Below, in pieces: positions 9,344 to 9,603 of a DNA stretch of 64,000 nucleotides (position 1 is the stretch's first letter; the number at the start of each line of letters is the position of its first letter). Under the pieces are notes generated by a model. That model saw only the letters and a program-made list of their open reading frames with translations, did no database searches and had not been told where the DNA came from. Source of the DNA: Escherichia coli (GTDB taxonomy: Bacteria; Pseudomonadota; Gammaproteobacteria; Enterobacterales; Enterobacteriaceae); the NCBI RefSeq assembly GCF_048403405.1, contig NZ_CP183129.1; one strand, written 5' to 3'. The translations under genes and the position numbers were made by a program.

Positions 9344-9361
9344 TTTGTAAACCGTCCGGCA

Positions 9362-9603
9362 CTCAATCGCCAAAAAGAAAAAAGCCAGCAGATAATCACT
9401 GCTGGCGTGGCGATTAACACCAATACTCAGTCACACATGATGTCCGCAAATCAGTAGCCAGAATGACTCCCCTCCCACTGCATCAGTTCTTCAAGCATGG
9501 TTAATCGTTGTGGGACGCTTAACCAACGCAACCAGCACAACTTCGCTGTCGCGGTAAAATAGTGCTGATAAAACTGACGCATGGGGCACCTCCTTGCTTC
9601 ATC
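9362..9603 (-). ncRNA. sgrS: SgrS small RNA (glucose-phosphate stress; dual-function sRNA)
   Basis: Minus-strand transcript divergent from sgrR; contains the SgrT reading frame and ends in a ccagcagtgattatctgctgg hairpin plus U-run. 5' and 3' ends are estimates (±10 nt). Confidence 0.8.
9451..9582 (-). CDS. sgrT: SgrT, 43-aa peptide encoded within SgrS
   Basis: MRQFYQHYFTATAKLCWLRWLSVPQRLTMLEELMQWEGSHSGY is the C-terminal 43 codons of track ORF 9451..9750; the rest of that ORF is read-through of non-coding DNA. Confidence 0.7.
   Translation of the reverse strand: MRQFYQHYFTATAKLCWLRWLSVPQRLTMLEELMQWEGSHSGY

Follow-up and report, generated by a model that had tools for sequence, protein, structure and literature searches.

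Why does leuD end almost directly at the terminator of sgrS in this Escherichia coli chromosome, when setA separates the two genes in K-12? A sequence-only reading of the window (the whole stretch of 64,000 nucleotides that was analysed) had remarked that a gene of about 1.2 kb is missing here, given the K-12 order leuD-setA-sgrS-sgrR, and had proposed either a lineage-specific deletion or a lineage that never possessed the gene. This order is right, as the annotation of the K-12 derivative ER2683 reads leuD, setA (1179 bp, opposite strand), sgrT/sgrS and sgrR, without espY2, and it is this 1179-bp gene that the window lacks. The window carries a setA-less leuD-sgrS allele that very probably goes back to one old loss of about 1.2 kb, while the setA-bearing (setA+) haplotype is a separate one that was probably exchanged between lineages.

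The leuD-sgrS junction

The features of the locus are listed below, with window coordinates, strand and evidence.

8738–9343, + strand: leuD, 3-isopropylmalate dehydratase small subunit, end gene of leuABCD (ORF list; RefSeq annotation of a 100% identical record)
9344–9376, no strand: leuD-sgrS spacer of 33 nt, putative setA deletion scar (sequence; comparison of orthologous spacers)
9377–9603, − strand: sgrS small RNA, full length, CFT073/O157 type (Rfam RF00534, model positions 1–232)
9372–9406, − strand: sgrS intrinsic terminator, an 8-bp stem GCCAGCAG/CUGCUGGC (9406–9384) followed by UUUUUUCUUUUU (terminator scan; Rfam structure line)
9451–9582, − strand: sgrT ORF within sgrS, 43 aa, MRQFYQHYFTATAKLCWLRWLSVPQRLTMLEELMQWEGSHSGY, ATG intact (translation; RefSeq annotation)
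9319–9472, no strand: haplotype block tied to setA absence (fixed-difference scan; identity matrices; genome counts)
9671–11329, + strand: sgrR, transcriptional activator of sgrS, divergent from sgrS (RefSeq annotation; tblastn)
11330–12379, no strand: second variable junction, an insert of about 1.05 kb with espY2, from sgrR to the TPP riboswitch and thiB (RefSeq annotation)

The genes leuA-leuB-leuC-leuD follow each other on the + strand, and the stop codon of leuD (TAG) occupies 9341–9343 according to the sequence and the ORF list. LeuD is full length (201 aa), corresponds to WP_000818239.1 in the identical RefSeq record and shows 97–98% identity to LeuD of K-12 and EDL933 (tblastn). The small RNA matches RF00534 with 229.8 bits (gathering score 37, E 1.9e-65) and displays the expected features of SgrS: it is divergent from sgrR and contains the sgrT ORF, the base-pairing core and an intrinsic terminator, whose hairpin (9406–9384) is followed by the U-run TTTTTTCTTT in the terminator scan. 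The SgrS 3' end lies 33 nt from the leuD stop, or 28 nt when the second T-run (9372–9376) is counted. Therefore, the adjacency of the U-run to leuD claimed in the sequence-only reading stands, while its distance of 20–25 nt is slightly too short.

We considered setA present where an ORF homologous to SetA (392 aa) lies between sgrS and leuD. The 33-nt gap (9344–9376) contains no sizeable ORF in the ORF list, and tblastn with K-12 SetA as the query (E ≤ 1e-10) retrieved no homolog from the whole 64-kb window, confirming the earlier observation that setA is missing between the two genes. A relocation of setA elsewhere in the window was rejected, as the same search gave no match. Over positions 9000–9900, the window has 100% identity to E. 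coli strain 4621 (a blood isolate from Houston with a finished chromosome), whose RefSeq leuD is identical to that of the window and whose annotation at the locus reads leuD, sgrT, sgrR, espY2, TPP riboswitch and thiBPQ. Further Rfam matches are the leu leader, 5' of leuA, and, ahead of thiB, the TPP riboswitch.

Distribution of setA and the deletion scar

The polarity of the change was addressed with 80 loci around SgrR homologs, one genome per species, in which LeuC, LeuD, SetA, SgrR and ThiB were located by tblastn. In all 76 non-Escherichia loci (L008–L083), SetA is encoded on the opposite strand directly upstream of sgrR; these outgroups include Citrobacter, Salmonella, Enterobacter, Leclercia, Lelliottia, Klebsiella, Raoultella, Kluyvera, Trabulsiella, Atlantibacter and Buttiauxella. 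The presence of setA is ancestral in the Enterobacteriaceae and its absence is a loss. The leuD-setA-sgrS-sgrR loci of Citrobacter, Salmonella, Enterobacter and Klebsiella share their flanking genes and orientation with the window, but they kept setA, which the window lost. Since setA adjoins sgrS in all 76 non-Escherichia loci, its absence from the window is best explained by a deletion, and the proposal that the lineage never had the gene is not upheld. One of these records (L033), titled Chryseobacterium sp. 18061, presents an Enterobacter-like leuCD-setA-sgrR-thiB arrangement with an SgrR sharing 80% identity with the one in the window, and probably reflects contamination or a labelling error.

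The loss is also found outside E. coli. By tblastn, setA is missing in E. albertii, E. whittamii and Escherichia sp. E1V33, while Escherichia sp. MOD1-EC7003 has a SetA with 99% amino acid identity to that of K-12. All the Escherichia examined are setA-less except E. coli K-12, IAI1 and EBJ001 and MOD1-EC7003, a statement limited for the genus as a whole by the composition of the 80 loci, among which E. coli, E. fergusonii, E. marmotae and E. ruysiae do not figure, although a high-ranking SgrR would be expected from each of them. The spacers of E. albertii, E. whittamii and E1V33 match that of the window and EDL933 base for base along TAG TTTGTAC.CCGTCCG(..)ACTCAATCGCCAAAAAGAAAAAAGCCAGCAG, the differences among these three and E. 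coli amounting to a few substitutions and a 2-nt indel. The same spacer across four species therefore points to one old deletion event. Nevertheless, the sharing of the deletion between species could also result from spread by recombination instead of descent.

Part of the original spacer can still be recognized in the scar. Positions 9369–9376, approximately, align with the setA-sgrS spacer of Citrobacter, through GCCAAAA.GAAAAAAGCC, while 9344–9368 have no convincing counterpart in either of the two spacers around setA in K-12, Citrobacter or Salmonella. Both breakpoints are therefore placed within these approximately 25 nt, and no more finely, as the spacers of the setA+ relatives are too diverged for an assessment of microhomology. 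From this comparison, the deletion appears to have taken the setA ORF together with its ribosome-binding region and the greater part of the two spacers, which leaves the window about 1.22 kb shorter than K-12. In CFT073 (L086) and E166 (L084), an IS200C element is located in the setA-less spacer directly behind the sgrS U-run, at the position corresponding to 9379/9380 of the window, and a corresponding split match is seen in about 15 genomes.

The frequency of the junction was estimated by megablast of window positions 9000–9900 against 5426 complete E. coli genomes, 5399 of which gave a match. In 2159 of the 5426, the whole query was recovered in one piece at 96–100% identity, that is, with the contiguous setA-less junction; in the remaining genomes, the match begins only at the SgrS 3' end (query position 379, window 9378), with a second, separate match in addition. 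Conversely, 3242 of the 5426 genomes have the K-12 leuD-sgrS interval with setA inside it, and in 3230 of the 3242 the identity is at least 99%. The two classes sum to nearly all the genomes with a match, i.e., about 40% setA-less and 60% setA+ in a collection skewed by sequencing effort. The leuD-sgrS junction is a clean two-state polymorphism in E. coli. Of the two alternatives in the sequence-only reading, then, deletion holds, without the narrow lineage attached to it.

Among reference strains, setA is annotated in K-12 and IAI1 and absent from EDL933, CFT073, IAI39 and 042. The annotation tables of EDL933, IAI39 and 042 present the order leuD-sgrT-sgrR, and EDL933 aligns with the window across leuD-sgrS-sgrR in one piece with 100% query coverage. 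We take EDL933 to belong to phylogroup E, CFT073 to B2, IAI39 to F and 042 to D, and K-12 and IAI1 to A and B1, respectively. With these assignments, the junction is a clean two-state marker for annotation that divides the six references, the only strains on which the phylogroup split rests, into A/B1 and B2/D/E/F. Our literature search for the distribution of setA and sgrS by phylogroup returned no match. Both setA and the K-12-type sgrS 3' end also occur together on three records classified as plasmids.

Two haplotypes and the probable origin of the setA+ allele

The allele classes differ beyond setA itself. In the 3' half of sgrS (9377–9490), the setA-less sequences of the four species are 95–99% identical to each other and only 74–78% identical to K-12, MOD1-EC7003 and EBJ001, whereas the 5' half (9491–9603) is 98–99% identical between the classes in the same E. 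coli strains. A scan for fixed differences, in which four setA+ sequences of Escherichia were compared with eight setA− ones, recovered four sites in the final 25 nt of leuD (9319–9339) and 23 within 9384–9472; the rest of leuD and the sequence up to 10400 had none. In K-12, the block measures about 1.38 kb, setA included. The K-12-type sgrS 3' end was found in 3242 genomes, the same count as setA, and the window-type spacer with its sgrS 3' end in 2157, so the association between sgrS 3' type and setA state looks complete across the population.

These differences reach the products of the locus. The C-terminus of LeuD reads FMR* in the setA-less allele and FMN* in K-12, and that of SgrT reads EELMQWEGSHSGY in the window and EGLMQWDDRNSES in K-12; the terminator loop and bases beside the seed are altered as well. 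The base-pairing core CUGAGUAUUGGUGU is unchanged in the alignment with K-12, E. albertii, Salmonella and Citrobacter. The window thus resembles K-12 in the position of the locus between leuABCD and thiBPQ, in sgrR and in the promoter region, 5' half and base-pairing core of sgrS. It differs from K-12 in the lack of setA, and with it of a possible sgrS-setA bicistronic read-through product, in the U-run (UUUUUUC, eight U in K-12) and in the ribosome-binding site of sgrT (GGAGG, a GGGGG hairpin in K-12). In contrast, the sgrS genes of CFT073 and EDL933 share the setA-less junction and are 97–99% identical to the window in the 3' half, although CFT073 carries IS200C in its spacer and the window does not, and the sgrT start codon is ATG in the window and ATT in O157:H7 (EDL933). 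Two setA+ loci present defects of their own. In E. coli EBJ001 (L085), a 15-nt deletion in sgrS at approximately 2499–2500 removes CACACATGATGCAGG, part of the base-pairing region, and its SgrS may be defective; in the K-12 derivative ER2683 (L002), the annotation treats sgrR (6294–7949) as a pseudogene, interrupted by an internal stop.

Within E. coli, the setA+ haplotype varies very little, and between species it is also more conserved than its surroundings. Between K-12 and MOD1-EC7003, setA is 98.5% identical at the nucleotide level (96.7% at third positions), compared to 93.7% (82.2%) for leuC and 94.2% (84.1%) for thiB. The MOD1-EC7003 allele of setA itself is in none of the 5426 E. coli genomes, where its best match is 98.9%. 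Because the other Escherichia and the B2/D/E/F references are setA-less, and because the setA+ sequences are uniform and more alike than their flanks, we infer that, of the two states in E. coli, the setA-less one is the older, and that the K-12-type allele was exchanged between Escherichia lineages by recombination. The transfer could have been directed either into or out of the E. coli A/B1 group.

The preferred reading can be set out as follows. The ancestral enterobacterial arrangement would have been leuD-setA-sgrS-sgrR, and one deletion early in the genus Escherichia would have left the 33-nt scar, which E. albertii, E. whittamii, E1V33 and some 40% of the complete E. coli genomes carry today. 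The setA+ haplotype of K-12 and IAI1, which extends from roughly the final 25 nt of leuD to halfway into sgrS, would have been retained in some Escherichia lineage and then passed between that lineage and the ancestor of the A/B1 group through homologous recombination. A more specific version, which we hold only tentatively and consider less likely than its negation, is that the presence or absence of setA is one half of an old two-allele system shared across species, in which SetA goes with its own type of SgrS 3' end and SgrT C-terminus, the setA-less state being ancestral in E. coli and setA having been re-introduced into K-12 and the other sampled setA+ strains.

Instead of a loss followed by introgression of setA+, the two classes could represent an old balanced polymorphism maintained by selection since before speciation. 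The divergence between them is very high and confined to a block of about 150 nt beside the indel, both are found in more than one Escherichia species, and both have intermediate frequencies in E. coli. These frequencies, however, come from a sample skewed by sequencing effort, and their association with phylogroups suggests clonal structure instead of a balance within populations. In addition, the near uniformity of setA+ (≥99% in 3230 of 3242 genomes, and 98.5% identity to MOD1-EC7003 despite a flank divergence of about 6%) fits a recent transfer better than long independent retention. We therefore regard long-term balancing selection as rather improbable.

Even less probable, in our view, is that Escherichia never had setA at this position and that K-12-like strains gained it from outside the genus. 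Such a gain would agree with the restriction of setA to K-12, IAI1, EBJ001 and MOD1-EC7003 among the Escherichia examined, and with the composition of the gene: K-12 setA (4794–5972 in the ER2683 locus, L002) has an atypically low GC3 of 52%, compared to about 61% in its neighbours and 58–83% (mean 73) in 73 non-Escherichia setA genes. This low GC3 could indicate a stay in a foreign genome or relaxed selection. The sgrS 3' half is similarly ambiguous, as the K-12 type is as distant from the other Escherichia (74–78%) as from Citrobacter (72–75%) and slightly nearer to Salmonella (81–83%), while the setA-less type reaches 85–90% with Citrobacter. Nevertheless, the identical position and orientation of setA in 76 of 76 non-Escherichia loci mean that the common ancestor had the gene. 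K-12 SetA does not exceed 89% amino acid identity to any sampled non-Escherichia SetA, its best match being from Citrobacter, in step with SgrR and LeuD; this is the distance expected of a vertical ortholog, and the sampled loci contain no closer donor outside Escherichia. From these comparisons, K-12 setA looks like a vertically evolved Escherichia ortholog, not an import from another genus.

A recent deletion particular to this strain or clone would fit with the local haplotype being in the minority, as only 199 genomes reach at least 99% identity over 9000–9900, but it was rejected, since the junction itself is common to the 2159 genomes and three further Escherichia species. A collapsed or mis-joined contig, which the sequence-only reading had named as a possible objection, was likewise rejected, as the window is identical to a finished chromosome and the same contiguous junction occurs in thousands of independent finished assemblies (the 2159 complete RefSeq genomes), including EDL933, CFT073, IAI39 and 042.

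Possible consequences for the glucose-phosphate stress response, and the espY2 junction

The setA-less junction is a common gene-content polymorphism that was already known, and involves no new mechanism or gene family. The CFT073/O157-type SgrS that accompanies the setA loss is described in Horler and Vanderpool (2009; PMC2760817), where K-12 SgrS is given as only 88% identical to its CFT073 and O157:H7 homologs, the start codon of O157:H7 sgrT is reported as lost and, according to the legend of Fig. 2, the synteny diagram marks setA. Our analysis adds that the loss is ancient and crosses species, that it belongs to a tight haplotype block extending into sgrS, and that K-12 probably represents the unusual state. 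For studies on SgrS, SgrT and SetA of K-12, this means that about 40% of the complete E. coli genomes (O157:H7, CFT073, 042 and IAI39 among them) and at least three other Escherichia species are without the SetA arm and have another SgrS 3' end and SgrT tail.

In K-12, sgrS and setA form an operon (Sun and Vanderpool, 2011; cited in PMC4021124 and PMC4509938), and setA expression arises from transcripts that read through the sgrS terminator (PMC4509938). SetA contributes to the recovery from glucose-phosphate stress, where its substrate is described as unknown (PMC4021124). By analogy, the response of the window strain to this stress would rely on SgrR, SgrS and SgrT, which is intact in this strain, and would lack the SetA arm, while its sgrS would be a stand-alone unit instead of the first gene of a sgrS-setA operon. 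If the K-12 allele was indeed re-introduced, K-12 would be an atypical model for the glucose-phosphate stress response.

The translation of SgrT could also differ. The ribosome-binding region of sgrT (9583–9597, − strand) reads GGAGGUGCCCCAUG in the window and GGGGGUGCCCCAUG in K-12, and the hairpin formed with the K-12 base sequesters the ribosome-binding site (Horler and Vanderpool, 2009; PMC2760817). SgrT may be better translated in the window strain than in K-12.

With setA removed, leuABCD and sgrS converge. The sgrS terminator is the sole one predicted between leuD and sgrS, and likewise between leuD and sgrR, and the terminator scan predicted none on the + strand from leuD to sgrR. Transcription from leuABCD encounters the sgrS hairpin only in reverse, and on that strand the hairpin lacks a U-run. 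The sgrS terminator would thus be the only predicted barrier between the two convergent transcriptions: transcripts that leave the leu operon may continue into sgrS in antisense, and any that pass the sgrS terminator would likewise be antisense to leuD. If this is true, the antisense overlap would tie leucine biosynthesis to sugar-phosphate stress in strains without setA.

Beyond sgrR, the second strain-variable junction proposed in the sequence-only reading is real. The insert of about 1.05 kb contains espY2 (11570–12139, − strand), a type III secretion system (T3SS) effector gene, and is found at ≥80% coverage in 1025 of the 5426 genomes. It accompanies the loss of setA in EDL933, IAI39, 042 and the window, and is absent from the setA+ strains K-12 and IAI1 and from CFT073 and E166, which have no setA either. 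Because CFT073 and E166 are without both setA and espY2, the two variable junctions are only loosely linked. Further downstream, the ThiB of the window (thiB, 12511–13491) is 90–91% identical at the amino acid level to those of K-12 and EDL933, yet corresponds to WP_001295536.1, as in IAI1. This makes thiB a second strongly dimorphic gene in the region, with alleles that sort independently of setA.
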